A DNA stretch of 64,000 bases from contig CAVQSP010000010.1 in NCBI GenBank assembly GCA_963715985.1, forward strand, positions 64,001 to 128,000. The letters run 5' to 3'. The position numbers were made by a program, and so were the translations under genes. Positions 2,246 to 63,989 of the stretch are shown here, one piece after another (within the stretch, counting starts at the first letter, position 1; each line of letters opens with the position of its first letter). Source of the DNA: an uncultured Thermoleophilia bacterium. Its GTDB lineage: Bacteria; Actinomycetota; Thermoleophilia; UBA2241. The notes below the pieces were generated by a model. It did no database searches, was not told where the DNA came from, and saw only the letters and a program-made list of their open reading frames with translations.

Positions 2246-3442
2246 CTAGGCCTCTACCTTGATCACCGAGCCGGCGCCCTGGCCGCCGCCCACGCAGGCG
2301 CCGGTGAGGCCGATCTCCTGGCCACGCTTCTGGAGCTCGTGGATGAGCGTGACGATCATCCGCGTGCCGGTGTTGCCCAGCGGATGGCCGAGCGCCACCG
2401 CGCCGCCGTTGACGTTGACGATGTCCGCGTCGAGACCGAGCTCGCGAACGGCGAGTGCGGCGACGCAGGCGAACGCCTCGTTGAGCTCGGCGAGCTGGAC
2501 GTCCTTGACTGTGATGCCGGCCTTGTCGAGGGCCATCTGGGCAGCCACGGTCTCGCCGTAGCCCATGATGGCCGGCTCCACACCGGCCGTGGCGTAGCTG
2601 ACCAGCTGGGCGATGGGCTTCAGGCCCAGCTCGGCTGCCTTCTTGCGCGAGGTGACGACCAGCGCGCTGGCGCCGTCGGCGATGGCGGAGGAGTTGCCGG
2701 CCGTCACCACGCCGCCGTCCTTCTTGAAGACCGGCTTGAGGCCCGCGAGCGCCTCAGGGGTGGTCTCGCGCGGGCACTCGTCGGTGTCCACGACCTTGGG
2801 GTCGCCTTTGCGCTGCGGGATCACGACGGGCACGATCTCGTCCTTGAAGCGGCCGGACTTGATGGCCGCCGTCGCGTTGAGCTGGCTCTTGTAGGCGACC
2901 TCGTTCTGGAGCTCCTTGCTGATGCCGAAGCGCTCGCTGAGGTTCTCGGCGGTGAGGCCCATGTGAGTGCCGCCGATGGCGCACCACAGGCCGTCCTGGA
3001 CCATGGTGTCGAACATGGGCGCCGACGGCATGCCCATGCGGTAGCCGCTGCGGCCTTCCTGCAGCACCCACGGCGCGCGGGTCATGTTCTCGGTGCCGCC
3101 GACCAGGTAGATCTCACCGTCGCCGCACTTGATGGCGGCGGCCGCCATGGCGAGCGCCGAGGCGCTCGACACGCAGACACGGTTGACCGTCATGGCCGGC
3201 ACGCTGTCCGGGATGCCGGCCTTCAGCTCGGCCTGGCGGGCGACGTTCTGGCCCAGCCCCGCCTGGATCACGTTGCCGAACAGCACTTCGTCCAGCTGCT
3301 CGCCGCTGACGCCTGCGCGCGCGAGCGCCTCGGTCATGGCGAGGGCGCCGAGCTCCTGCGCCGGAGTGGCGGCGAAGCCGCCCTGGAAGCGGCCCTGGGC
3401 CGTCCGTACCGCGGAGAGAATGACGACGTCGTTGTCAGACAC
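2246..3442 (-). CDS. Acetyl-CoA C-acetyltransferase (thiolase)
   Basis: NRVC, NEAF, GHPLG and CVGGGQG thiolase motifs. Confidence 0.95.
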
Positions 3443-3548
3443 TATGGCCTCCTTGTGCCAGTCCGTGTGTGCCTGCAGCCCCCGTCGCGTTCCTTCCGCT
3501 CTGCATCACGACACATCGTTTTGACTTGCTGCTGTTCATGGTACCGGT

Positions 3549-4283
3549 TCAGTCGCCCGCTTGCCGCCGCACGACCTCCTGGGCCAGGAACGAGGCGACC
3601 TCGAGAGGCGTCGTGCGAGGGCCGAACCCCGCGTCGTACCCCAACTCCTTGGCGAAGGCGTTGTTGATGCGCGGTCCGCCGACGATGAGGACGAAGCGTT
3701 CGCGCACGCCCTCGGCCTCGAGGAGCTCGATGAGCTGCGTGAGGTGCTGCACGTGGATGTTCTTCTGGGTGACGATCTGGCTCACGAGGATGGCGTCGGC
3801 GCCGCGCTCGAGGGCCGTCTTGAGCAGCTGTGCGCAGGGGATCTGCGAGCCCATGTTGAGGGCGTCCATCTCCGGGTAGCGCTCGAGCCCGTAGTTCCCG
3901 GCGAAGCCCTTCATGTTCATGATCGCGTCGATCCCCACCGTGTGCGCGTCGCTCTCGATGGCGGCGCCGACGACGCTGAGCTTGCGGCCGAGCTTCTCCT
4001 TGATGAGCGCGTTGATGGCGTAGTAGTTCATCTCCTCGACCTCGAGGTAGTCGCCCTTCACCTCGTCCGGGTCGATGCCGGCATCGGTGCGCCCGTATGC
4101 GACGTAGAACGTGTAGTCGGGGTCGATCGCCTTGCACTCGGCGATGCCCACCGTGTGGAAGCCGAGCTTCTCGAGGAACTGCTTGCCCACGTCGGCGGCC
4201 TTGACCGAGTAGGTGATCGGAAGGGTGAACGAGAACTGGATGACGCCGTCATCACGAGTATCACCGTACGGCTTGACTAGCAT
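3549..4283 (-). CDS. kamE: Lysine 5,6-aminomutase beta subunit (cobalamin-binding)
   Basis: VKPYGDT..DG, DAHTVGIDAIMNMKG (DxHxxG plus PLP lysine), SQIVTQKN; ATG after GGAGG. Confidence 0.93.
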   Translation of the reverse strand: MLVKPYGDTRDDGVIQFSFTLPITYSVKAADVGKQFLEKLGFHTVGIAECKAIDPDYTFYVAYGRTDAGIDPDEVKGDYLEVEEMNYYAINALIKEKLGRKLSVVGAAIESDAHTVGIDAIMNMKGFAGNYGLERYPEMDALNMGSQIPCAQLLKTALERGADAILVSQIVTQKNIHVQHLTQLIELLEAEGVRERFVLIVGGPRINNAFAKELGYDAGFGPRTTPLEVASFLAQEVVRRQAGD

Positions 4284-5889
4284 CAGTGCCCCCTCCCTCT
4301 GCCGAGAGTGACGCGCCGGGCGCGGGGCCTTCGGGCGCGCCGTCCATGCGGCCCTCACGAAGCGCCGCGAAGAACGGGTTGAAGTAGTCGGCCGCGTGGC
4401 GGAACACGCCCTCGTGGCCGCGCCCGCCCTTGGGGTCGCGCTTCACGTCGGCGAACTCGCCCAGCTCCAGCGCCCTGAAGAGGCCGATGGAGCGCACGTG
4501 CTCCAGCTGATCTACGGCCTTCTGCAGCTGGTCGTTGGCGCGTTGCTCGATCATGCCGCCGGGTTTGAAGGTGATCTCGCCGGCGAGGTCGCGGCACGAC
4601 TCGAACACGTACTTGGCGTTCTTGATGCTCACGTAGCGGTCCTGGAGGAGCGGCGTGTGCAGCGCCTCGGTGAGCATCCCCAGCAACATGATCTCCTGGC
4701 CGGTGAAGATGCCGGTGAAGTTGAACATGCCGTCGATGATGTGGCCCTGGAAGATGTCGCCCGGCATGTACTTGGTGGGCGGCATGTACTTGAGGGGGTA
4801 GCCCGGGAAGAGCTCGCGGACGAGCTGGGCGTCGGCGATCTGGTACACGACCTGGTCCGGCTTGCCCGGATCGATCTCGAACGCATGGCCGAGGCCGATC
4901 TGCCACGGCTCCAGGTTGGCGCGCAGGGCGAAGGCCTCGTTGATGAAGTCCGAGCTGACCACCGTGTAGCCCTTCTCAAAGGCGTCTGCGGTGGTCAGGT
5001 AGTTGTCCTCGCCGGTGTTGATGATGATGCCGGCGCGCGCGTTGATGAGGCGCGAGAGGTACTGGTCGACGAACGTGCGCTCCATGTTGATGTTGCGGAA
5101 GATGATGCCGTACATGGAGTCGTTGAGCATCATGTCGAGGCGCTCGAGCGCCCCCATGGTGGCGATCTCCGGCATGCAGAGGCCGCTGGCGTAGTTGCAC
5201 AGACGCACGTAGCGGCCGAGCTCCTCGCCGACGTCATCCAGGGCGGCACGCATGAGGCGGAAGTTCTCCTGGGTGGCGTAGGTGCCGCCGAAGCCCTCCG
5301 TGGTCTCGCCGTAGGGCACGTAGTCCAGCAGGCTCTGCGCTGTGGTGCGGATGACGGCGATCACGTCGGCGCCGGCGCGCGCCGCCGCCTTGGCCTGCGC
5401 GGCGTCCTCGTAGATGTTGCCGGTGGCGACGATGACGTACACGTAGGGCTTCACGGGCTCGCCGACCTCGGCCACGAGCTCGTTGCGCCGCCGCCGCACG
5501 GCGTCGATACGCGCCACGCCCTCGGCGGCGAGCTCGGCGGCGCGCGCGTCCACGGCCTCGCGCCGTTCGGCCGCCACTGCAGCCAAGGCGAGGTCGCCGC
5601 CGGCGACGCCCTCGGCGACCTCCTGGGCACTGCGTCCCGTCTGCAGCATGACGTCGACGAAGGGCCGCATGATGCCGCCCGGCAACAGCTCGCGCGCGTG
5701 CTCCGCCACGACGTTCACGAGGGGCACATCGATCTCGTTGACGCCGGCCACGCCGAGCAGCCGCAGCGTCGCCCGCTCGGTGCTGTCCGTGGTGTGTGCG
5801 TCGATGTGTTTCTGGATGTCGTCGGCCACGGCCTCGGCCGCCGCGCGGGCGCGGCCGACCAGGCCCTGGTCGAGACGGAGCGCGTCCAT
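4261..5889 (-). CDS. kamD: Lysine 5,6-aminomutase alpha subunit
   Basis: YVIVATGNIYED, TEGFGGTYATQENF, NYASGLCMPEI, NTGEDNYLTT, KYMPPTK. Confidence 0.93.
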   Translation of the reverse strand: MDALRLDQGLVGRARAAAEAVADDIQKHIDAHTTDSTERATLRLLGVAGVNEIDVPLVNVVAEHARELLPGGIMRPFVDVMLQTGRSAQEVAEGVAGGDLALAAVAAERREAVDARAAELAAEGVARIDAVRRRRNELVAEVGEPVKPYVYVIVATGNIYEDAAQAKAAARAGADVIAVIRTTAQSLLDYVPYGETTEGFGGTYATQENFRLMRAALDDVGEELGRYVRLCNYASGLCMPEIATMGALERLDMMLNDSMYGIIFRNINMERTFVDQYLSRLINARAGIIINTGEDNYLTTADAFEKGYTVVSSDFINEAFALRANLEPWQIGLGHAFEIDPGKPDQVVYQIADAQLVRELFPGYPLKYMPPTKYMPGDIFQGHIIDGMFNFTGIFTGQEIMLLGMLTEALHTPLLQDRYVSIKNAKYVFESCRDLAGEITFKPGGMIEQRANDQLQKAVDQLEHVRSIGLFRALELGEFADVKRDPKGGRGHEGVFRHAADYFNPFFAALREGRMDGAPEGPAPGASLSAEGGGTDASQAVR

Positions 5890-14174: not shown

Positions 14175-14361
14175 CGGCTCGCGCCGTCGCCTCCCGCCGC
14201 ATCCAGCCGCTGGGCGCCTCCGCTCCCGGTGCTGCGTCCCCGGCCGGCTGAGTCTGCTGCGTGCCACCGGGGTTTAGCCCTGCGCCGCCTTCTGGGAACA
14301 ACCTGAGTCAGTGAAGGTGTGGGGCGCGCCGGCGGCGGGCCCCTCGGCGGGAGGTCCCGGC

Positions 14362-16466
14362 GTGGTGAAGACCCTGCAGCAACCGGTCCTGGCGCACGTG
14401 CTCTTCGACGAGGCGCACGGCGAGGCGTGGTCGATCCGCCCCGAGGCGGCGGCCCAGATGCGCCCTGAGCATCCCGCTGCCGCCTCGTACGCGGTCGCGG
14501 CCACCGCGCTCGCGGAGCGGGACTTCGCGGTGGCCGTCCACCCGTCCGGCCCCCTGGAAGGCGAGGCGCTCGCGGCCGCCGACGTGCTCGTCATCGCACA
14601 TCCCTCCGACCCGGCCTGGGAAGGCACGCTCGGAGGCTCGCCGCGCCTCTCCGGGCCGGAGATCGACGCGGTGGAGGAGTTCGTGGGCCGCGGCGGCGGC
14701 CTGCTGGTGCTGGGCGAGACGGAGCAGCGCAAGTACGGCGACAACCTCAACGACCTGCTGGCTCGGTTCGGCGTCCGGCTCGACAACACCACGGTCTTCG
14801 ACTACGCGGGATCCCCGGAGGCGCCCACGTGGGCGCCGGCTGTCGCGGAAGCGACGGCCGCCGCGCCGGCGCTGCTGCATCTGGTGAGGGAGTCACGCTT
14901 CTATCGCGCCGGCTCGCTCACGGCCGACGCGCCCGGAGCTGTGGTGCTGCGCACGGGCGCGCACGCAGCGCCTGCAGGCGCCGCCCTTCTCGCGGCCGTG
15001 ACCCACGGCCACGGCCGCGTGGTGGTCGCGGCCGACTCAGACCTGTTCGGCGACGACTTCCTCACCAGGCACGACCACCTGCAGCTGTGGCTCAACGTCT
15101 TCTACTGGCTGGCGCGCCCCGCCTTCGCCGGCGAGGACGGTGCGCTGGCTTCGGACGCCGCTGCCGACCCGTGGTGGGCGCGGCTGCGCGACGAGACCGA
15201 CGCGCTGCGCCTCCTCCAGGAGCCGCGGGGCGAGGTGGATGGAACGGCCGTCGACGCGCAGGTGGTGCGCGGGCACGTGGACGTCATGGTCGAGGCCGTC
15301 CAGGCGCTTGCACCGCGCTTCGCACACCAGCGCGCCTACCTCGAGCAGGTGACCCGCGACCTGCGTGCCTGGGTGGACGGCGGCTGCGGCCGCCCGGACT
15401 TCGGCGCGTCGCTCGAGCTGCTCAGGCCGGAGCGGGAGCGCCGCGACGGGGTCGAGCACCTCGTGGTGCTCCCGCTCTACACGCCCAACGGGTCGCCGGA
15501 CACGCGCTTCGAGGCGCTCCTGGTGCGGACCCCGTGGCCGCCGTTCGTGGATCAGCTCGAGCGCACCGAGTTCGACAACGGCAAGTTCGTGCCGGTGCAG
15601 CTCGTGGACCACACGGCGGGGTACGCCGGCGAATGCGCCGTGCTCTTCCCCGAGACGGTGAGCCTGTCGGGGCGCCCGAGCAACAACTTCGGCGCCATCT
15701 TCTGCGATCGCGAGTCCCGCCGCTTCCGGCGTACGACGTTGGCAGCCGCGGAGGTGCTTCACCTCGACCTGCCGCCGGACGCCGCCGCCCTGGTCAGCTC
15801 CCCCGAGCTCTCCCTGCAGACGTACATCCTCTGGGACCTCATCCACGACCGCTGGCACAGCCACGGCGATCTGCCCTTCGACCCGTTCATGATCCGCCAG
15901 CGCCTGCCCTACTGGATGTACTCGCTGGAGGAGCTGCGCGTGGACCTCGCGACCTACGGCAGCGCAGGGGAGCTGGCGCGTCGCGGCTTCCACTTCGCGA
16001 GGTACGTGCAGTACGCGATCCTCTTCGACCGCATCCTGCGCTTCCCCATCACGGGCTCGCGGGTGCGCAACTACGACGGGCTGGGCGGCCAGCTGCTCTT
16101 CGCCTTCCTGCACCGCCGTGGCGCCGTGGCGTGGACCGACAACAGGCTCAGCATCAGCCTGGGACCAGGTGGACGACGCGGTCGCCGAGCTGCGCACCCG
16201 CGTCGACGACCTGTACCGGCGCGGCATCGACCTGAGCAAGAGTGGCCTACTGGGCGGCGGCGCACGACCTGGTGGCCGAGTCCGTGGAGCCCAACGTGGC
16301 CTCGCTGTGGCGCCGCGAGGCGCGCGTGGTCTCCGATGAGGCGGAGCCGCGCGAGTGGGTGGACCGCGTGCTCGACGACGAGTTCCCGCTCAGCACGTTC
16401 TACCTCGCGCTGCAGAAGAAGCTGGCGGAGGCGGCCGGGCCGCCGGCCGCACCGGCCGCCGTATGA
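14362..16466 (+). CDS. DUF6421-family protein with extra N-terminal domain (frameshifts near 16156 and 16241)
   Basis: AVLFPETV, IFCDRE, WDLIHDRWHSHGDLPFDPFMI, RNYDGLGGQLLF. The reading continues through ORFs 16118-16339 and 16242-16466. Confidence 0.75.
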
Positions 16467-17182
16467 CGCACGGCACCGTCGCGGGGCTGGCGGGCGTCTT
16501 CGGCCTCGACGACCTCCAGGTCGTGGCTCTGGACCGCTACGTCGACCTGCTGCTGGCCTGGCGCGGCAACGTCACCGGCCTCACCACGCGTGACGAAGTC
16601 GTGGGCACCTTGCTGGGCGACGCGCTGGCGCTCCTGGACGTCGACGCGCTTCGGGAACGGGCCGGCGCCCCGTGGGTGGATCTGGGCGCCGGCGCCGGCA
16701 TCCCCGGCATCCCTCTCGCTGTGGCCGAGCCCGCCGCCAGAGTGACGCTCCTCGAGGCGGCGTCCCGCAAGTGCGCGTTCCTGGAGGCGGCGGTCGAGGC
16801 CGCCGGCCTGGACGACCGCTGCGTGGTGGAGTGCGCGCGCAGCGAGCGATCTGCGGCGGCCGGCGCGGCGGGCCGTGAGGCGTACGCAGTCGTGCTGGCG
16901 CGCGCCGTGGCGCCGCTCCCGGTCCTTGTGGAGCTGGCCGCGCCGCTGCTCGCGTCCGGCGGCGTGCTGCTGGCCAGCAAGACCGGCCGCGCTCTGCGGG
17001 ACGAGGGCCCGGCTGCCGAGGTCGTGGCCGGTCTGTGCGGCATGGCGGCGCGGCCGCCGCAGGCGCTGCCGCGCTCCCCGCTGGACGACGCCGTCTGTGC
17101 GCTGTTCGAGAAGGTGGAGCCGACGCCCGCGCGTCTGCCGCGGCGTGAAGGCCAGGCCGCCAAACGGCCGCTGGCTCGCTGA
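16463..17182 (+). CDS. rsmG: 16S rRNA m7G527 methyltransferase RsmG (GidB)
   Basis: DLGAGAGIPGIPLA, RKCAFL, ARAVA, PRREG; upstream of parA. Confidence 0.9.
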   Translation: MTHGTVAGLAGVFGLDDLQVVALDRYVDLLLAWRGNVTGLTTRDEVVGTLLGDALALLDVDALRERAGAPWVDLGAGAGIPGIPLAVAEPAARVTLLEAASRKCAFLEAAVEAAGLDDRCVVECARSERSAAAGAAGREAYAVVLARAVAPLPVLVELAAPLLASGGVLLASKTGRALRDEGPAAEVVAGLCGMAARPPQALPRSPLDDAVCALFEKVEPTPARLPRREGQAAKRPLAR

Positions 17183-42269: not shown

Positions 42270-43679
42270 ATGTCGCAGCGCGCGACGACGACCGTGTGGG
42301 ACGGAGAAGCGTGCGCTCGGGCGCACGCCGCCAGCCGCAGCGTCCTCGAGCGCGCCGGCGTCGAGATCGGCCATCCGGAGGCTCTGGCCCTGCTGGCGGG
42401 GGCCGGCGCGCGCGTCGAAGGCACGCGCGTCTTCATTCCCGGCGCGCTCGTGGACGACGCTCTCGTCTCCGCGCCGTCGTCCTTCGCGATCCCGGGCCGT
42501 GGCCGAGGCGGGATGCAGCTCGAGCAGGGCTGCTCATGGTTTGGCACGGGCCCCGATTGCCTGTATCTGCATGACCCCATCACGGGGACACGGCGGCGCG
42601 CCCGGCTGGACGATATCGTCGCGAGCGCCGACCTCTGCGACAAGCTCGACCAGGTCGACTTCATCATGTCGATGGGCCTGCCCGAAGACGCACCACTCGC
42701 GTCCGAGGACCTGCTGCAGTTCGCAGCCATGCTCGACGGGACGTCCAAGCCCTTGATCGTCTCGACGAGTCACGGCGGCGACGGACTCGAGGCGATGCGC
42801 GAGATGGCGGGCCTGTGCGGCGAGCCGGCGAGCTTCGGCTGCCTCACGATGTCGTCCCCGCCGCTCAGCTTCGACCACGCCGCCATCGACAAGCTCATCG
42901 CCTGCGCCCGCCTGGGCATCCCGGTGATCCTCGCCCCGGCGCCTTCGGCCGGCGCCACCGCGCCGGCGTCCATCTCCTCGGCCATCGTCGTCGGCGACGC
43001 CGAGGTGCTCGCCGGACTCTGCGTGCAGCAACTCGCTCGCCCAGGAGCACCGTTCGTCTACGGCGTCGGCGCCTGTGCGTTCGACATGCGCATGGCGGTC
43101 GACGCCTACGTGATCCCCGAGGCCTTCCTGGCCAACCAGGCGGGCTGCGACCTGGCACGCTCGTACGGCCTGCCGAGCTGGGCCTACGCCGGGCCGTCAG
43201 ACGCCAAGGCGCTCGACGGGCAGTGGGCGGCGGAGGTGGCGATCACGACCCTGCTGGGCGCGCTCTCGGGGGCGACCCTGCTCCACGACCTCGGCTACAT
43301 GGAGTCGGGCATGGCCGGCGCCCAGGAAGCGATCGTGTTCGGCGCCGAGCTCGTCGGCTTCGCGCGCGCCTTCATGCGCGATCTGCCGCTGGACCCAGAG
43401 GCGCTGCAGATCGAGGAGATCGTCGCCGTGGGACCGCGCGGCAACCACTTGGCCCGGCCGTACACCCGCCGGCACCACCGCGACTTCTGGAAGACCGACA
43501 TCCTCGACCATGCGCCCTACGAACGCTGGCAGGCGGCGGGCGGGACGACGCTGCGGGAGCGCGTTCGGCAGCGCACCCGCGACCTGCTGGCCGCCGAGCG
43601 CGCGACGCGGCTTCCCGACCACACTCGGCGGGACTTCGACCGCATCATCTCCGCGGTGGCGGACAGGCGGCAGTCGTAG
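42270..43679 (+). CDS. Trimethylamine methyltransferase (MttB) superfamily, non-pyrrolysine
   Basis: GATAPAS, AEVLAG, PGAPFVYG, DAKALDGQ, HDLGYMESG, VGPRGNHL; no in-frame TAG. Confidence 0.9.
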   Translation: MSQRATTTVWDGEACARAHAASRSVLERAGVEIGHPEALALLAGAGARVEGTRVFIPGALVDDALVSAPSSFAIPGRGRGGMQLEQGCSWFGTGPDCLYLHDPITGTRRRARLDDIVASADLCDKLDQVDFIMSMGLPEDAPLASEDLLQFAAMLDGTSKPLIVSTSHGGDGLEAMREMAGLCGEPASFGCLTMSSPPLSFDHAAIDKLIACARLGIPVILAPAPSAGATAPASISSAIVVGDAEVLAGLCVQQLARPGAPFVYGVGACAFDMRMAVDAYVIPEAFLANQAGCDLARSYGLPSWAYAGPSDAKALDGQWAAEVAITTLLGALSGATLLHDLGYMESGMAGAQEAIVFGAELVGFARAFMRDLPLDPEALQIEEIVAVGPRGNHLARPYTRRHHRDFWKTDILDHAPYERWQAAGGTTLRERVRQRTRDLLAAERATRLPDHTRRDFDRIISAVADRRQS

Positions 43680-56699: not shown

Positions 56700-58628
56700 T
56701 CAAGCCAGCGGGCGCCCGAGCGCGGCCGGGTCAGTCACCGGCGCGAGGCACGTGGTGCCGCGGCACACGTAGGCGGCGAGGCCGGGCGGCCCGCCGGCAG
56801 GGCCGGTGATACTGAGAGCCTCGAGGCGGGATGCGTCCGCGGCGTCACCGGGGTCGAGGAGTTGCACAGTGCGCAACGGCCGCGCCGCGGCGAGCGCCGC
56901 GGCGTGCAGGCGCCGGGCGGCAGGGTCGTCGCGGGCGCCGGCTACGACGATGTGGTCGGGCCGGTCGATGTACCGCAGGAGCGCCCTGCCGTAGGCGGCG
57001 GCGGCGACCCCGTACTGCTCGTGGGACGAGACCCAGCCCATCAGGATCTCGAGGGCAGCGTCACGCCACTTGGCTTCGCCGGTGTACGCCTCGAGGCGCA
57101 TGAGGACGTCGGCCATCAGCGCGTTCTCGTCCAGCACCGGTAGCGGTCGGCCCAGCAGGCCGGCGCTGTCGCCGGCCGTCGGGAGGCGGTCGTGCAGGCG
57201 GCCGTCGGGGGCGCGGAGGTGCTCGCCGGCCCAGCCGGCGAGCTCAGCCGCGCCCTCCAGCCACCGCCGCTCGGCGGTGACTTCGTAGGCGTCGAGGAGC
57301 GCGGCCGCGAGCGACGCCTGGTCGGCCAGCAGCGGCGACCCGGGCGCGGGCTGTCCTTCGGCCGTGAGGTAGTGCGCCGCCGCGCCGCCGCGCCGACCGG
57401 TCTCCCAGAGGCGCGCGAGCGCGGCGATCGCAGCATCGCCCAGGTCCTGACGCTGCAGCAGCACGGCGCCGCGCAGCAAGGCCCGCACGGCCAGCGCGTT
57501 CCAGTCGACGATGACTGTGGGATCCACGTACGGCTCCGGCAGTCCGGAGCGTCCCTCGGCGTCCAGAAGATAGTAGCTCTCGTCAGCGTCCTGGCTGCCG
57601 CCGAAGGCCGGCGGGTCGGCCTGCCAGAGGGTGGCGAGGAGGTAGTCGAGCGTGCCGCCGGCCGCGTCTCGGTACAGCACCATCGACCCGAGGCCGGCCG
57701 GCGAGTCGTCGCCGTGTTCGCGCGCCAGGACGGCGGCGTCGAGGTACAGGACTGCGAGCCGCGCGTTGTCCTCCAGCATCTTCTCGTAGTGGGGCACGGA
57801 CCAGTCGCGCCGTGTGGCGTAGCGGAAGAAGCCGCCGGCGACGCCGTCGTAGATGTCGCCGCGGGCCATGCCCTGCAGCGTGGTGCGCACCACTTCGTGC
57901 ACGCGCCCGGCGCTGAGCAGGCCGCTCGTGTGCGGCGCCACGTGCGCGGGTGCGCCGGCGCCGCGCATCTCCGCGTAGGCCAAGGCGAACTCGAACACGT
58001 CCGCCTGCGGGAACTTGGGGTCCGCGCCCAGGCCGCCGTGCACGGGGTCGAAGGAGCGCACCACCTCCAGCGCGATCTCGGCTGGGATGTCGCCGGGCAC
58101 GTCCGGGTCGCCTTCGAAATCGGGCGCCGGCCCGTCGCTGCGGAACGGCGTGGAGCCCAGGTACGCGCGCGCCGCGTCGGCGTCGGCGGCGCGCGCGTGC
58201 TCGGCGGTCTCCAGGGCCAGCAGCGCCACGCGGTTGGCGGCGAAGAAGTCGGTGACTCGCGTCAGGCTCTGCAGCATCTGGTCGGGCGGGATGTACGTGC
58301 CGCCGGTGATCGTGTCGCCGTTGGCGGCCAGGAACGCGGTGGTGGGCCAGCCGCCCATGTTGTACCGGCGGTTCACGTCGGGATGCCGGTCGTTGTCCAC
58401 ACGCACCGGCACGAACCCCTGGTTGATGGCGGTGATGACGCGCTCATCGGAGTAGCTGGTCTCGTCCATGACGTGGCACCAGTGGCACCACACCGCGGAG
58501 AGCGAGAGCAGGATCGGGCGCCCGAGCCGGTGCGCCTCCTTGAAGGCGTCCTCGCTCCAAGGGCGCCAGTGGATCTCGTGGGCCCGGTTGGGGCGCGGCG
58601 AGAAGCGGAAGTCGGTGTCCCCGTCCAT
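56700..58628 (-). CDS. DUF255 thioredoxin-domain protein (YyaL/SPATA20-like)
   Basis: WCHWCHVMD, GGWPTT, PKFP, GGFFRY, PHYEKML.DNA. Confidence 0.92.
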   Translation of the reverse strand: MDGDTDFRFSPRPNRAHEIHWRPWSEDAFKEAHRLGRPILLSLSAVWCHWCHVMDETSYSDERVITAINQGFVPVRVDNDRHPDVNRRYNMGGWPTTAFLAANGDTITGGTYIPPDQMLQSLTRVTDFFAANRVALLALETAEHARAADADAARAYLGSTPFRSDGPAPDFEGDPDVPGDIPAEIALEVVRSFDPVHGGLGADPKFPQADVFEFALAYAEMRGAGAPAHVAPHTSGLLSAGRVHEVVRTTLQGMARGDIYDGVAGGFFRYATRRDWSVPHYEKMLEDNARLAVLYLDAAVLAREHGDDSPAGLGSMVLYRDAAGGTLDYLLATLWQADPPAFGGSQDADESYYLLDAEGRSGLPEPYVDPTVIVDWNALAVRALLRGAVLLQRQDLGDAAIAALARLWETGRRGGAAAHYLTAEGQPAPGSPLLADQASLAAALLDAYEVTAERRWLEGAAELAGWAGEHLRAPDGRLHDRLPTAGDSAGLLGRPLPVLDENALMADVLMRLEAYTGEAKWRDAALEILMGWVSSHEQYGVAAAAYGRALLRYIDRPDHIVVAGARDDPAARRLHAAALAAARPLRTVQLLDPGDAADASRLEALSITGPAGGPPGLAAYVCRGTTCLAPVTDPAALGRPLA

Positions 58629-58763
58629 GGGCCTGACATTCCCACGCGCACGGCAGGTGAATCGTGGAGCTGCGCTGCCGGCCCCACGGCGGGTCGCGTG
58701 TCCGCCTGCGCCGCCGCCTGTAGCGTGCTCGCCCGCGCGGTGGCGCGATACGATGGTCGCGTC

Positions 58764-59828
58764 ATGGACACACCCATCCCTCTCATCGAGCTCGCGGGCA
58801 CGCACCGCGAGATCGGGCGCCAGATCGGCGAGGAGTCGCGAGACGTCATCGCGCGCGCCCTGGCTCGCTACGAGGTCCGGTTCCCGGTGCTCGCCGGCAT
58901 GACCTTCACAGCGGCCGTCGAGGCGGCGCGCCCATACCTGCGGCCGGCCGAGGAGTACCTGCCCGACGCCGTGGACGAGCTGCGCGGTATCGCCGAGGGC
59001 GCCGGCGTGCCGTTCGAGCAGCTCCTCGCCCTGAACTGCAGCGAGGAGACCACGTGCGCGGCCGACTGGGTGTGGCCGCCGGCGGAAGGCCACTGCACCT
59101 CGTTCGCCTTCGTGGCCGGCGGGCGTACCGTGGCCGGCCACAATGAAGACTGGTACCCGGACGACATCGACGCGCTTGTGGTGCGCCGAACGCGGGTGCG
59201 CGGCGGGGCAGAGTACATCTCCGTGGGCCCCGCCTACTACCTGCCGATCACCGGCGTCACGGCCCGCGGCTTCTCGAGCGCGGCCAACACCGTGTACTGC
59301 CGCGACGAGCGCGTGGGCGTGCCCAACAATGTCGTGCTGGCCGGCGTGCTGGAGGCCGGCGGCCTCGACGACGCCGCGGCGCTCATCGCAGGGGCGGAGC
59401 GGGCGCGCGGCTCCAACCACCTCTTCGCCGACGAGACCGGCCGGATCCTGGACGTGGAGACGTCTGCCACCCGCCTGGCGCGCATGGACGGCGGCGCCTG
59501 CTTCGCGCACACCAACCACTACGTGTCGGCCCAGCTTGCGCCGCAGGACGCGAGCCGGTCGGAGGGGTCGCCCAAACGGCTCGCTCGTGCATACGGATTG
59601 CTGGCCGCCGGACTCGACGCCGGCACGGACCCTGTCGACCTGGCGATGTCCGTGCTCAGGGACCACGCCAACGCGCCCGAGTCCATCTGCGGGCACTGGA
59701 ACGACGCCGACCCGGCGCAGGACCAGTCGGTGACCACGGTGAGCATGGTGTGGGAGCCGGCCGAGCGGCGCGTGCGCGTCGCGGCCGGCCAGCCGTGCGA
59801 GCATGAGTACGTGACCTACGAGCTCTGA
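58764..59828 (+). CDS. C45-family Ntn-hydrolase (acyltransferase/peptidase)
   Basis: G.HREIG.QIG, ELRGIAEG, HCTSF (nucleophile Cys), GHNEDW, HTNHY. Confidence 0.88.
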   Translation: MDTPIPLIELAGTHREIGRQIGEESRDVIARALARYEVRFPVLAGMTFTAAVEAARPYLRPAEEYLPDAVDELRGIAEGAGVPFEQLLALNCSEETTCAADWVWPPAEGHCTSFAFVAGGRTVAGHNEDWYPDDIDALVVRRTRVRGGAEYISVGPAYYLPITGVTARGFSSAANTVYCRDERVGVPNNVVLAGVLEAGGLDDAAALIAGAERARGSNHLFADETGRILDVETSATRLARMDGGACFAHTNHYVSAQLAPQDASRSEGSPKRLARAYGLLAAGLDAGTDPVDLAMSVLRDHANAPESICGHWNDADPAQDQSVTTVSMVWEPAERRVRVAAGQPCEHEYVTYEL

Positions 59829-59879
59829 GCGGCGACCCTGCGGCGCGCCGCTCCATGAGCCAGCTGCGTTGCTGTTCGA

Positions 59880-59897
59880 GCGGCGCGACCGCGCCGC
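59880..59897 (-). promoter_or_regulatory. Candidate bacterial SECIS hairpin
   Basis: GCGGCGC-GGUC-GCGCCGC, with the loop starting 21 nt after the UGA at 59913-59911. Confidence 0.55.
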
Positions 59898-59901
59898 AGC
59901 G

Positions 59902-60111
59902 TCAGCGGCCTCAGCCGTAGGACGTGTTGCAGGCCGGCGCCCCGCAGTTGGGGTCCGACAGCGGGCCGTTGCGCAGGTAGCTGCCGAACGACTGCTTGAT
60001 GTCCTTGCTGTTGCACTCGGGGCACTGCTTCTGCTTGGCCTTGATGGCGCCGCGGGTCACCAGCTGGAACTTGTGACCGCAGCTCTTGCAGCTCAGATCG
60101 AAGATGGCCAT
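59902..60111 (-). CDS. FmdB-family zinc-ribbon protein, probable C-terminal selenocysteine (...NTSYG-U-GR-stop)
   Basis: CKSC...CPEC ribbon; UGA at 59911-59913 followed by GGC CGC UGA and a SECIS-like hairpin. Ends at 59911 if the first UGA is a stop. Confidence 0.8.
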
Positions 60112-60308
60112 CAGCGGACCCCCACCTCGTCGCGGACGTATGAGAACACGCGGCACACGTCGGTGCAGGCGCGGCAGTCGGTACACAGCTCGTCGTCGAT
60201 GTGCGGTGCGCTGAAGATGTCGTCCTGGACGATCGCACCGACCGGGCAGAAGCGCACGGCGGGGCACGGGTGGTTCTGGGGGCAGGCGTGGACGTTGACG
60301 TCGATCAT
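60111..60308 (-). CDS. Small 4Fe-4S ferredoxin-like protein
   Basis: CPQNHPCPAVRFCPVGAI...CTDCRACTDVC. Confidence 0.88.
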   Translation of the reverse strand: MIDVNVHACPQNHPCPAVRFCPVGAIVQDDIFSAPHIDDELCTDCRACTDVCRVFSYVRDEVGVR

Positions 60309-60327
60309 GCGCTCTCTCCGGTGACGG

Positions 60328-60534
60328 TCAGTTGGCGGTGCTGAAGTGGAGCGCCCGGTAGAGCGGGCAGCATCCGGTGGCGGCGGTGACGAGCAGGACC
60401 GCGCCGAGGGACGCGGACAGCGCGCCGAAGGGCCGGCGATGGGTGGCGCAGGCCACGGCGCCTACGGCGACGAGGGCTGTGCCGGCTCCCGCGCGCACCA
60501 GCCTGTCGGGGGTGCTTTCGTTCTTCTCAAACAT
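60328..60534 (-). CDS. DUF2892 (YgaP-like) membrane protein
   Basis: NESTPDRLVR, two TMs, TGCCPLY. Confidence 0.88.
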   Translation of the reverse strand: MFEKNESTPDRLVRAGAGTALVAVGAVACATHRRPFGALSASLGAVLLVTAATGCCPLYRALHFSTAN

Positions 60535-60862
60535 GTGACTCCTGACTCTCCAGAATGTGGGCCTTGTCTGCCATCTCGCGGCCGACGATCTCGTCGATGA
60601 GCGCGCAGGCCTGCGAGAGGCGCCTGTCGACGACCTCCCACAGCACGCGACCGTCCTGGCGAGAGCGCTTCACGAGGCCCTCCCGCTGCAGCACCGCCAG
60701 GTGCTGTGAGACGTTGGGCCGGCTGACCTCGAGCGCCTCCGCGAGTTCGGTGGGCGTGAGCGGGTCCTCGCACAGCAGATGCATCATCTCGTGGCGTGTA
60801 GGGTTCGCGAGGGCTGCGAACACCGCGGCGTGGATCTCGTAGCGCTGTCGTTCCATACTCAT
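60527..60862 (-). CDS. ArsR/SmtB transcriptional regulator
   Basis: FAALANPTR, VSQHLAVL...GLV. Confidence 0.9.
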   Translation of the reverse strand: MSMERQRYEIHAAVFAALANPTRHEMMHLLCEDPLTPTELAEALEVSRPNVSQHLAVLQREGLVKRSRQDGRVLWEVVDRRLSQACALIDEIVGREMADKAHILESQESHV

Positions 60863-60868
60863 GCGGCT

Positions 60869-60905
60869 ATTGTATCCAAGTTTCGCAATTTCGCAACATG
60901 GAAAT
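60869..60905 (-). promoter_or_regulatory. Leaderless arsR promoter with probable ArsR operator
   Basis: TTGCGA-N16-TACAAT ending 6 nt before the ATG; overlapping TTTCGCAA direct repeat and ATTTC-N8-GAAAT inverted repeat. Confidence 0.6.
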
Positions 60906-60976
60906 CTAGTGAGCAGTGAAGTGGCTCCCCCAGAGGGATCCGGAAGACTCCAGAGCACTTCGGAAAGGCGAGAGAC

Positions 60977-61372
60977 ATGGACATGCAGGTCTACTTCCCC
61001 GGCGGCAAGCGCGTGTACGCGGACTACGGCGGGTTCACCATCGAGACCGACCAGCCTGTGCGCGGTGGAGGCGACGGCTCCGCGCCGGCCCCCTTCGATC
61101 TCTTCCTTGCGTCCATCGGGACCTGCGCCGGCATCTACGCGCTCGGCTTCATGCAGCAGCGCGGCATCGACGCGGAGAACGCGAAGCTGACGATGAGCAT
61201 GGCGCGCGACCCCCAGACGGGGATGATCGGCGAGATAGGCATCGAGCTGACGCTCCCCCCCGAGTTCCCTGAGAAGTACCGGGATGCCATCGTGAACGCC
61301 ATGAACCTGTGCGCGGTGAAGAAGCACATCCACAATCCGCCGGAGTTCTCCATCACCACGGTGATGAGCTGA
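60977..61372 (+). CDS. OsmC-family protein
   Basis: TDQP..GGGDGSAPAPFDLFLASIGTC...CAVKKH. Confidence 0.92.
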   Translation: MDMQVYFPGGKRVYADYGGFTIETDQPVRGGGDGSAPAPFDLFLASIGTCAGIYALGFMQQRGIDAENAKLTMSMARDPQTGMIGEIGIELTLPPEFPEKYRDAIVNAMNLCAVKKHIHNPPEFSITTVMS

Positions 61373-61968
61373 TGGCCGACGCGTTCGACCCGACTCACGC
61401 CGGCCGACTGGAGGAACCGGCGCGGCTCGAGGCGCTGCCGCAGGCGGCCGTCGTCTCGCTGCTCCGCCTGAGCGGCGACGAGGTCGTCGTGGACTACGGC
61501 GCCGGCACCGGCGTCTACACGATGGCCGTCGTGGAGGCTGTGCCGCGCGGCCGCGTCATCGCCGTGGAGGCGCTGCCGACGCTTGCGGACAAGCTCCGCG
61601 AGCGGGCAGCGGCCGTGCCGGGAGCGCTCGAGCGCCTGGAGATCGTGACCACCGACGCGAACGCTGTCGCGGCAGCCGACGGCGTCGCCGACCGCATCGT
61701 CATGGTCGACGTGCTCCATCACCTGTTCGACCAGCCGGCGGCGCTCGCCGAAGTGGTGCGGCTGCTGCGCCCGGGCGGGCTGCTCGTTATGGCGGACTGG
61801 GGCGACAAGCCCGCGCCCTGCTCGGCCCGCCCACTCGACCACGTGCTCGGCCTGGCCGCTGTGCGCGACATCGTGCGCGACATGGGCCTCGACGAGCTTG
61901 AGGCGCATGAGCAGGGCGACGGCCTGCCCTACCACCTCACGGTGGTGGCGCGGAAGCCGGCGGACTGA
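61372..61968 (+). CDS. Class I SAM-dependent methyltransferase
   Basis: VVDYGAGTG, VLHH, LRPGG, ADW. Confidence 0.9.
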   Translation: MADAFDPTHAGRLEEPARLEALPQAAVVSLLRLSGDEVVVDYGAGTGVYTMAVVEAVPRGRVIAVEALPTLADKLRERAAAVPGALERLEIVTTDANAVAAADGVADRIVMVDVLHHLFDQPAALAEVVRLLRPGGLLVMADWGDKPAPCSARPLDHVLGLAAVRDIVRDMGLDELEAHEQGDGLPYHLTVVARKPAD

Positions 61969-62026
61969 TGCGACGCCGCGGCGGCGGGTCTCCCCCTCGC
62001 CCGCCGCTGCGGCGCTGCTTCACCAG

Positions 62027-62278
62027 CTACACCGTCCTGCGTACGAACAGCCGCAGGTAGCCTGGCCCCTCGAGCGTGCCGAGGAACTCGTTGCCGGTCC
62101 GCTTGGCCCAGGCCGGGATGTCGCTGCCAGCGCCCGCGTCGGTGGCCTGGACCTCCATCACTCCGCCGGCGGAGACGCCGGCGATGGCTTTGCTGGCGGC
62201 CAGGACGGGCACCGGACACAGGGTGCCGCGGCTGTCGACGATCTTCTCGACCGGGATGGTTGTGAGGTCTTCAGTCAT
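62027..62278 (-). CDS. TusA/SirA sulfur carrier
   Basis: DSRGTLCPVP, ATD, DIPAW. Confidence 0.9.
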   Translation of the reverse strand: MTEDLTTIPVEKIVDSRGTLCPVPVLAASKAIAGVSAGGVMEVQATDAGAGSDIPAWAKRTGNEFLGTLEGPGYLRLFVRRTV

Positions 62279-62326
62279 GACCCTGCTGTGCGCCATGGCC
62301 GGCATCCTCAAACCAGCGGGCGGACG

Positions 62327-62737
62327 TCAGAACACCTGGACGACGTCCGCCTCCTCACACTTCACGATGTACTCGGCGATGCCGACGATGTCGTCGCAGA
62401 TGTCGACGAAGTCGTCGAGGCCGCCGGCGCCCAGCTCTTTCGGGCCGTGCCGCACACGTCGACTCTGCACCTTGCCGTCCGCGCGCAGCTTGCGCAGGTT
62501 CTCGAGGGGGTCCGGTACCGCGTGCTCGGCCATGCCGGCCCGCATCTCGTCGTGGAGCTCGGGCCGGTCCACGTGTGTGCCGTTCTCGGCGACGTCCTTG
62601 CGGAACGCGTAGGCGCCGCCGAGCAGCAGGTATATATCCACGTCCATGTCCAGGGCCACGGCGCCGCCGGTGACGGTGCTCGTGACGAGGAGCTTCTCCA
62701 GGCTGCCGCTGGCCAGCCCGATCGCCATCTTGCTCAT
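62327..62737 (-). CDS. DsrE/DsrF/DrsH-like protein
   Basis: SGSLEK, GAVALDMDVDIY, DIVGIAEY; the Cys motif (VCGTA) sits in an alternate frame. Confidence 0.8.
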   Translation of the reverse strand: MSKMAIGLASGSLEKLLVTSTVTGGAVALDMDVDIYLLLGGAYAFRKDVAENGTHVDRPELHDEMRAGMAEHAVPDPLENLRKLRADGKVQSRRVRHGPKELGAGGLDDFVDICDDIVGIAEYIVKCEEADVVQVF

Positions 62738-62849
62738 AGTGCCCCCTTTCGGTCCGCCTCCCGGCGGGACGTCGTCAAGCAGCCGACGCCGGCGGCGCCC
62801 CTCGCGGGGCGCCGCCGGCAGACGGTCGAACAGCGCGGTGCGGCGTCCG

Positions 62850-63989
62850 TCACGCGGCCTCGGCTGCCGCCCGGTTCTTGGCCCTCGCCGCGGCTGTCTC
62901 CTCCGCGTGCACCTTCACCGTCGAGAAGTAGATGGCCAGCGGCCGGTAGGCCAGGTGTGCCCACTTGCCGAACGGCACCTCGAGCACCAGCATCGGCACT
63001 ACGCCCATAAGGTGGATGATGTACATCACGTTGGCCGCCTCATCGAGGCCGGAGCGGTGCAGCAGGTTCTGCAGGACGCCCGTGACCGCCACCCAGAGCA
63101 GCAGGTAGAGGAACATCCAGTCGCTCTCGTGCGAGTGCTGGTGCTGGGGGCTGTCCTTCTTGATACGGCCGCGCAGGTTGATGATCACCGCGGCGATCAG
63201 CCCGATCGAGGCCAGGTACCCGAACGCGTGCACCCGCCAGTCGATCGCCGGCCCGGACTGCATCCTGTACAGGAAGAACATGATCAGCACGAGCATGGTC
63301 ACGTAGCTGAGCATCAGCGCCAGATGGATGGCCCACGGACGTTTGCGCTCACACTGGCGCATCTTCATCTGCGTGAAGAAGTGGTACGGCAGCTGGGGCA
63401 GGGCCGCGAGGTACGAGCCGATGCCGGCGCCCGAGCCGCGCATCACGAAGCGCCACATGCGCAGGACGTTGATGCCCAGCAGGATGACCAGGACGATGGC
63501 CATGGTCCAGTCGAAGCGGTGCACGTAGTGGGCGGGCAGGAAGGCGTTCTCGCCGTCGTACACGCTGAAGCTGCCGCCGTTCAGGATGCCGAACAGGATG
63601 AAGCCGACCGCCGTGAGCACCGCCGCGATCACGATGGCGATGATCTCCCAGGCGGGCGAACGGTAGAACAGCCCGCTGAGGCCGCTGAAGTCGTACTTGG
63701 ACGTGAGCCAGCGGCGCATGCTCATCATGGTCTCGCCGGGCTCGGCCTCCTTGGGGCACTGCTCCGAGCACTCGCCGCAGTAGTAGCACATCCACGGCTC
63801 GGTCTGGCTCTTGAGCTTGTCCTCAAGGCCCAGCTGCAGGGCGTGCATCGAGCGCCGCGGGATGATGGTGGACCCTTCCGAGTGCACGCACACCGCGGAG
63901 CAGTTGCCGCAGTTGAAGCACTTGTTGACGCTCTCGCCGCCGTAGGCCTGGAGCTCGTCGGCGAGCCCCGGTTTGATCTGTGTCGCCAT
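62850..63989 (-). CDS. QmoC-like protein (2x4Fe-4S plus cytochrome b-type membrane domain)
   Basis: CFNCGNCSAVC, CYYCGECSEQCP, about six TMs with His residues, PFGKWAHLAYRP. Confidence 0.85.
   Translation of the reverse strand: MATQIKPGLADELQAYGGESVNKCFNCGNCSAVCVHSEGSTIIPRRSMHALQLGLEDKLKSQTEPWMCYYCGECSEQCPKEAEPGETMMSMRRWLTSKYDFSGLSGLFYRSPAWEIIAIVIAAVLTAVGFILFGILNGGSFSVYDGENAFLPAHYVHRFDWTMAIVLVILLGINVLRMWRFVMRGSGAGIGSYLAALPQLPYHFFTQMKMRQCERKRPWAIHLALMLSYVTMLVLIMFFLYRMQSGPAIDWRVHAFGYLASIGLIAAVIINLRGRIKKDSPQHQHSHESDWMFLYLLLWVAVTGVLQNLLHRSGLDEAANVMYIIHLMGVVPMLVLEVPFGKWAHLAYRPLAIYFSTVKVHAEETAAARAKNRAAAEAA

Follow-up and report, generated by a model that had tools for sequence, protein, structure and literature searches.

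The original FmdB selenoprotein (Zhang and Gladyshev 2008, PMC2398784) is described, in the accessible part of that paper, from two marine reads with a CxxU motif and 807 Cys homologs. An FmdB-family putative regulatory selenoprotein with CxxU or U/CxxU is also tabulated in PMC9312934, as far as its text is available, and in an inventory from 2026, which covers 119 selenoprotein families of prokaryotes (PMC13188914), UxxU is the only motif given for FmdB. The gene analysed here belongs to the same domain family and, like its published counterpart, has a UGA accompanied by a predicted bacterial SECIS element. The position of Sec differs: it lies in CxxU, U/CxxU or UxxU in the accessible text of these sources, whereas here it would occupy position 67 of a protein with a [YF]GUG tail. 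In the copy from the window, i.e. the whole 64-kb stretch of DNA that was analysed, the putative Sec codon is outside any CxxC-type motif. The preliminary description had counted FmdB among the listed selenoprotein families. This is true, but the Sec listed in the available texts is that of CxxU or U/CxxU and lends no direct support to a Sec in the tail. Since the published Sec is part of a CxxC-type motif and not of a tail, the conserved C-terminal [YF]GUG form looks, from its sequence, like a different, unlisted FmdB subfamily. In the inventory, proteins with Sec at another position count as a subfamily of their own (PMC13188914).

A Sec at or near the C-terminus, which gives the appearance of a double stop, is known from SaoC (Cys-Sec-COOH), KCU-star and the selenobacteriocin TIGR04081 (SGUG), according to the accessible descriptions. 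SaoC moreover has a short 7-bp SECIS with a G loop that lies mostly in the 3' UTR, like the hairpin in the window (bioRxiv 10.1101/2022.07.06.499078, available text). All three are, however, sequence families unrelated to the FmdB tail protein (PMC13188914, Table 1 as accessible). No selenoprotein model of NCBIfam 20.0 matches the 66- or 70-aa form of the latter at E 0.01. Mammalian thioredoxin reductase ends with Gly-Cys-Sec-Gly-COOH, a flexible tail in which a near-terminal, penultimate Sec is followed by Gly, as proposed here. The two proteins are not homologous, FmdB has no flavin domain, and its nearest Cys is located 4–12 residues upstream and not adjacent to the Sec position; the likeness is an analogy of working, not of membership.

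Haft and Gwadz (bioRxiv 2022.07.06.499078), in the accessible text, ask for ten or more examples, all of which (100%) have TGA at the site, for similarity through U, and for alignment to Cys in members that are not selenoproteins. Here, the site is TGA in 33 of 33 copies. Similarity beyond U comprises only one or two residues (Gly in 30/33), and among 252 proteins a Cys counterpart is seen in P0110, in P0073 and possibly in P0123. A description of the tail was not found in the published literature on FmdB, zinc ribbons, Thermoleophilia and C-terminal or penultimate Sec, where an earlier annotation is possible. It is not mentioned in the accessible parts of deep-Sep, BSepDB, PMC11227280, PMC13449736 and PMC7438021.

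The FmdB-family gene and the hairpin that follows it

The window has a GC content of 70%. The relevant features are listed below.

59828..59853, plus strand: hairpin (8-bp stem, z −0.99) following the convergent gene for a C45 peptidase
59871..59910, minus strand: candidate bacterial SECIS (7-bp upper stem 59897-59880, loop 59890-59887, variable lower pairing)
59902..59910, minus strand: GGC CGC (Gly-Arg) and second in-frame UGA (59904-59902), the presumed true stop
59911..59913, minus strand: in-frame UGA, putative Sec67 (TGA in 33/33 copies)
59914..60111, minus strand: FmdB-family zinc-ribbon ORF, 66 aa as conventionally called
60111..60308, minus strand: gene for a small 4Fe-4S ferredoxin-like protein, coupled with the start of FmdB (PF00037, E 6e-6)
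60328..60534, minus strand: YgaP-like transmembrane (DUF2892) gene (PF11127, E 3e-16)
60527..60856, minus strand: ArsR/SmtB-family repressor with two Cys (HLLC, ACxLI; NF033788 above cut-off, PF01022)
60869..60896, minus strand: sigma-70-like promoter match TTGCGA-16-TACAAT upstream of arsR (consensus match only)

An operon of ArsR, DUF2892, ferredoxin and FmdB genes had been proposed in the preliminary description, and all four families were matched (PF01022/NF033788; PF11127, which we take to be synonymous with DUF2892; PF00037; PF09723/TIGR02605). The promoter match upstream of arsR is one site, compared to 0.2 expected in shuffles. The FmdB ORF, whose start codon shares the overlap TGATG with the ferredoxin stop codon, scores 36.8 bits against TIGR02605 (E 3e-9, cut-off 31.3 bits) and 39.7 bits against PF09723 (E 5e-10, cut-off 34.4 bits). 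It contains CxxC at residues 8-11 and 30-33, and these four residues (C8, C11, C30, C33) are encoded by Cys codons and invariant in the family alignment. The tail carries Cys56 and Cys61, and the last residues are YG.

The end of this ORF had been given as CGAPACNTSYG-UGA-GGC-CGC-UGA, which is what is read on the minus strand from 60111 to 59914 and then at TGA 59913-59911. The 7-bp GC stem described there (GCGGCGC/GCGCCGC) with a GGUC loop at nucleotide +21 after the first UGA is likewise present, as are the additional GCUG/CAGC pairs below it. The stem is not followed by a U-tract, in agreement with the earlier claim, and a terminator scan of positions 58500-62500 returned zero sites.

In bacteria, the UGA is followed directly on its 3' side by a stem-loop to which SelB binds together with Sec-tRNA (PMC9312934). 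The bacterial SECIS model, as given in the accessible part of PMC13188914, has an apical loop of 3–9 nt and an upper stem of 4–16 bp, a G at loop position 1 or 2 (mostly G[G/U]), a distance of 16–37 nt from UGA to loop, and an MFE at or below −7.5 kcal/mol. Counted from the first UGA, the hairpin lies within all four constraints of this model as available; counted from the second stop, the loop begins at only +11 to +15, which is too close. The resemblance to E. coli fdhF noticed earlier is borne out, as the fdhF element has its GGUC at +19, compared to +21 here and +18 to +22 in the relatives. The apical loop is the same in both, but the upper stem of fdhF is bulged and located inside a long coding region, whereas a perfect 7-bp GC helix follows the presumed true stop in the window. 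An Rfam search of the window matched no family. As an alternative Sec codon, the second UGA was rejected: it is too near the loop, two copies have TAG or TAA in its place, and the spacer beyond it varies by single bases, so that no frame is kept downstream.

The upper stem of this copy has a stability of −14.2 kcal/mol. For the 43-nt fold, z is −0.56, and 59 of 200 shuffles are as good. Among the 48 TGA genes of the window, a loose hairpin test is passed by 13, and a stem of at least 7 bp occurs in two. In the window alone, the feature is therefore within chance, and it becomes significant only across the relatives. The probability of the SECIS stem in this copy is 1.0 with 45–60 nt of context and 0–0.04 in five of six folds with 75–120 nt. 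This loss results from a competing fold with the antisense of the neighbouring hairpin at 59828-59853. In the relatives, the median stem probability at 75–120 nt is 0.95 or more (about 0.97), with 6–14 of 31 below 0.5.

The neighbouring hairpin had been considered a possible terminator of the convergent gene; it does fold, but it lacks a U-tract. It contains CTGCGGCGCG, which is identical to the SECIS 5' arm, and its antisense can for this reason sequester the SECIS in long transcripts. Such sequestration is possibly due to chance or regulatory.

Conservation of the UGA, the tail and the hairpin

A scan of GTDB with one pattern matched 81 stretches, 32 of which were confirmed; 31 loci were returned. 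These loci are related and comprise 14 titled Thermoleophilia, 16 other Actinomycetota and one Acidobacteria, two of them being from one isolate. The window itself is therefore probably of Thermoleophilia origin as well. With a paralog in locus L017 and the window, 33 gene copies are available. Thirty loci run straight to TGA at the family end, and L021 does so after a frameshift. UGA occupies the site in 33/33 copies, compared to TGA in 351 of 550 stops of called genes. Homologs ending with TAA or TAG and without a hairpin had been named beforehand as evidence against recoding; instead, all 33 copies combine TGA with a hairpin at SECIS spacing. In parsimony trees meant to allow for relatedness, which took in called genes within length limits, the stop codon changed zero times in 23 family genes (tree length 7.1). 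It changed seven times in 24 ArsR-like genes (tree length 6.4), and 4, 3, 2 and 3 times in four smaller neighbour families.

A second in-frame stop is found one or two codons after the first in 33/33 copies, compared to 22 of 524 other genes. This second stop is TGA in 31 copies, TAG in one and TAA in one, so that TGA conservation by itself is not decisive. The residues between the two stops are G in 25 copies, GR in three, GC in two, R in two and RS in one. The codon after the UGA is GGC (26), GGT (2), GGG (1), GGA (1) or CGC (3), that is, Gly in 30/33 with synonymous variation. The C-terminus G-U-G-R of the preliminary description fits the window copy, but belongs to a minority of 3/33; the form of the family is [YF]-G-U-G-stop (25/33).

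Two loci deviate in other respects. L021 (10001-10250) has a single-base frameshift early in the FmdB gene, an assembly error or a sign of a pseudogene, with tail and hairpin intact. L017 (10323-10560) contains a second, divergent tandem FmdB copy ending with SPFG-UGA-G-UGA, whose hairpin has a perfect 18-bp stem; this hairpin is oriented towards a gene in convergent direction and may also act as a terminator.

The loop starts at +18 to +22 in 33/33 copies and is GGUC in 25 of them. All loops have 3–5 nt, and the number of contiguous pairs is 5–8 in 32 copies and 18 in one; the stems of L014 and L015 have only 5 bp. G is found at loop position 1 or 2 in every copy, with two loops beginning with AG instead of GG. 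The standard deviation of the loop spacing is 0.95 from the first stop and 1.0 from the second, which means that the two distances are about equally constant. A uniform hairpin test was passed by 25 of 26 called family genes, compared to 13 of 325 other TGA genes, and some of these 13 are antisense views of the family hairpin. In the stem alignment, 95.7% of cells are paired, and two-sided (compensatory) changes occur in four of seven pairs. For four of five covariation measures, 0–1 of 500 shuffles reached an equally high value, while the pair-types measure failed; relatedness inflates such tests. No U-tract was found on either strand in 32 of 32 cases. The next called gene has the same direction in 22/31 loci and is in some of them 63–125 nt away.

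The same tail is seen at the protein level. A single-sequence search yielded 15 homologs, all with 65–66 aa and all ending with YG or FG. Of the 102 homologs from a profile search, 97 terminate with G (66 YG, 27 FG, 3 GG, 1 HG). The other five comprise three frameshift-type products, a distant protein and one that ends with FSC. The frameshift-type products, of which a further search added two, carry RLRL[RT]. In L021, the other frame across the GGC-TGA-GGC junction gives this RLRL string, and translation across the hairpin gives RGAVA, which is also present in P0097 and P0108. In the pooled searches, 173 of 252 proteins shorter than 125 aa end with [FYH]G, and 162 of these 173 have a Cys within their last 14 residues. 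The preliminary description had proposed to look for Cys or a conserved UGA at the site. The UGA is conserved in 33/33 copies, but Cys, assessed in proteins only, occupies its position in just two of 252, P0110 (FGCGGPPLS) and P0073 (FSC), or three if P0123 (PGCG) is added by eye. Addition of read-through rows to the search gave no further Cys counterpart, and none of the source names of the homologs mentions selenium.

Possible readings of the UGA

Taken together, the comparison supports read-through, and the first UGA is very probably recoded as Sec. The FmdB-tail protein and its relatives are then probably selenoproteins that are listed too short in databases. SelB would bind the hairpin with the GGUC loop, some 20 nt further downstream, and Sec67 would be inserted; the ribosome would then add Gly-Arg and stop at the second UGA, so that the SECIS would lie largely in the 3' UTR. 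The product would have 69 aa: a CxxC-CxxC zinc ribbon, followed by a flexible tail in which a Cys is conserved and [YF]-G-U-G stands close to the end.

A bearing on this reading comes from other UGAs. Among 12,168 TGA triplets of the window and the loci, 47 matched the hairpin shape. These are 29 family copies, whose detection is circular because the pattern was derived from them, and 18 others. Only one of the 18 lies in a long coding-like frame, namely position 4719 on the minus strand of L023 (Actinobacteria bacterium RBG_16_64_13), where VGG-UGA-PGC is followed by GCGGC-GGUC-GCCGC at +18. This ORF matches a single NCBIfam model, that of the UGSC (seleno)protein family, with E 2e-9 (37 bits compared to a cut-off of 125 bits, for a partial sequence). 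It is a probable selenoprotein, which suggests that at least one related genome uses a UGA with a GGUC-type hairpin for a known selenoprotein. The comparison with other in-frame UGAs that had been recommended at the outset has in this way yielded the same GGUC hairpin at the UGSC-like UGA. The UGSC-like ORF is divergent from the arsR operon, upstream of which it lies at a distance of about 1.2 kb.

Genes for the Sec machinery were searched in the same material. No match to selA or selB and no tRNA-Sec was detected in the 64-kb window or the 31 loci; ARAGORN found nothing in the window and five ordinary tRNAs in the loci. A SelD-type protein was not matched among the 62 called window genes. A read-through screen of the window showed no coding-like continuation across any TGA, and noisy Cys/TGA tblastn screens gave no other selenoprotein among the matches listed. 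DUF5714 proteins encoded in five loci (L003, L005, L016, L017, L018) are similar, with E 1e-47 but below the cut-off, to a portion of MbdU, a double selenoprotein; no in-frame UGA was found in these neighbours.

It is improbable that the first UGA is an ordinary stop, with the second as a backup and the hairpin as a U-less terminator or mRNA-stabilising stem. U-less terminators do occur in high-GC Actinomycetota, and TGA is the commonest stop both in the window, where it ends 48 of 61 complete genes, and overall (351/550). The predominance of TGA at the second stop (31/33), a loop spacing that suits either stop equally, and the perfect 18-bp stem facing a convergent gene in the second L017 copy would all be in keeping with termination. 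This reading has to contend, however, with the GGUC loop conserved in 25/33 copies, with the missing U-tract in 32/32, and with a next gene of the same direction in 22/31; a terminator role of the family hairpin is disfavoured. It also leaves unexplained the invariant Gly before the stop, the synonymous variation of the Gly codon after it, the Cys counterparts, and the fact that, in L023, an internal UGA is followed by the same hairpin.

SECIS-aided read-through could also insert cysteine by means of a SelC*-like tRNA-Cys with a UCA anticodon. The DNA signature would be identical, and the Sec machinery was not found in the window or the loci. The same holds, however, for a SelC*-like tRNA in the loci, and such systems are rare and have been described in other phyla. 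A plain Cys codon is moreover almost never present at the UGA site, so that selection for Sec fits better, and insertion of Cys is very improbable. A genome-wide reassignment of UGA, e.g. to Trp as reported for Eggerthellaceae of the same phylum (accessible part of PMC13462651), can practically be dismissed, since TGA terminates most window genes with no coding-like continuation across any of its TGAs.

Putative function and wider occurrence of the tail

The AlphaFold model consists of a beta-ribbon, a short helix and a low-confidence tail comprising residues 56-69 (pLDDT 66, tail below 50). Foldseek gave no match at E 0.001, a profile search of the PDB generic zinc ribbons only, and an Atlas search FmdB clusters only. 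Within 1.2 kb of the FmdB gene, ArsR is encoded in 25/31 loci, ferredoxin in 23/31, OsmC in 12/31, a cysteine-dioxygenase-like protein in 8/31 and a YgaP-like protein in 7/31. The flanks of the loci contain DsrE/HdrB-type (9/31), HdrA (8/31), TauE (5/31) and TusA (4/31) genes; in the window, OsmC, TusA and QmoC/HdrC-like genes are near the operon. In the main ArsR group, the two Cys are kept in 21/21 rows. A thiol-sensing role of this ArsR is conceivable, its match to BigR being below the cut-off.

Given Sec at position 67, the tail might serve as a mobile Cys...Sec arm carrying redox equivalents or sulfur (sulfane-sulfur); this is our tentative first choice, based on motif and gene context. 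The Cys/Sec arm would be re-reduced via the coupled ferredoxin, and the operon would be repressed by the two-cysteine ArsR. In second place comes the binding or handing-on of a soft metal by the Cys/Sec tail, a rather unlikely function, and other roles account for the remainder.

A cluster of TusA, MvhD-like, HdrA, HdrC-QmoC and DsrE genes recurs in the window (62027-63989) and in L005, L012, L015-L019 and L021, which suggests a sulfur-transfer heterodisulfide-reductase-like system in these Actinomycetota. Elsewhere, the window encodes lysine 5,6-aminomutase subunits with a thiolase (2246-5889) and an MttB-family methyltransferase (42270-43679), the called ORF of which has no in-frame stop. 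These genes point to an anaerobic lifestyle with use of amino acids or amines. At 14311-16593, a DUF6421 match stops in the middle of the ORF; the remainder is of low complexity and off-frame, with a better-coding ORF at 16242-16466, and a frameshift is possible.

A related ending is found in another phylum. The FmdB protein encoded on a Thermomicrobium roseum plasmid (L032 2992-3245, WP_169302318.1) is a distant copy ending with SCSTGGG-UGA-AIRW-UGA; its hairpin has 8 bp and a GUG loop located at +24 (z −2.07). Its gene is preceded by ArsR and followed by DUF302, MBL-hydrolase and rhodanese genes. Similar endings occur, at the protein level only, in proteins named from Desulfosporosinus, Acidaminobacter and Aquicultorales; the Chlorohelix copy ends with FGG-TAA. 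The plasmid searches gave no close match, only distant FmdB copies, two of 24 records having been inspected. A large part of the FmdB zinc ribbons from different phyla that break off with FG, FT, FS or GG could be truncated selenoproteins. They would then form a widespread bacterial selenoprotein family, so far unannotated, whose Cys...Sec arm passes sulfur or electrons to TusA/DsrE/Hdr-type and rhodanese systems, an extension that we regard as doubtful.

If Sec is inserted as proposed, the tail would define an unlisted selenoprotein subfamily with Sec one or two residues from the end, and more than 170 database proteins ending with [FYH]G would be wrongly cut off at the residue that is probably the active one. 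Searches for Cys/TGA pairs miss such tails, since there is hardly any sequence beyond the UGA and few Cys counterparts exist. The compact, conserved candidate SECIS would be suited to reporter tests. Sec would be in use in the poorly studied, probably anaerobic Thermoleophilia, and the FmdB family, which is functionally unassigned, would gain a testable role as a redox or sulfur carrier.
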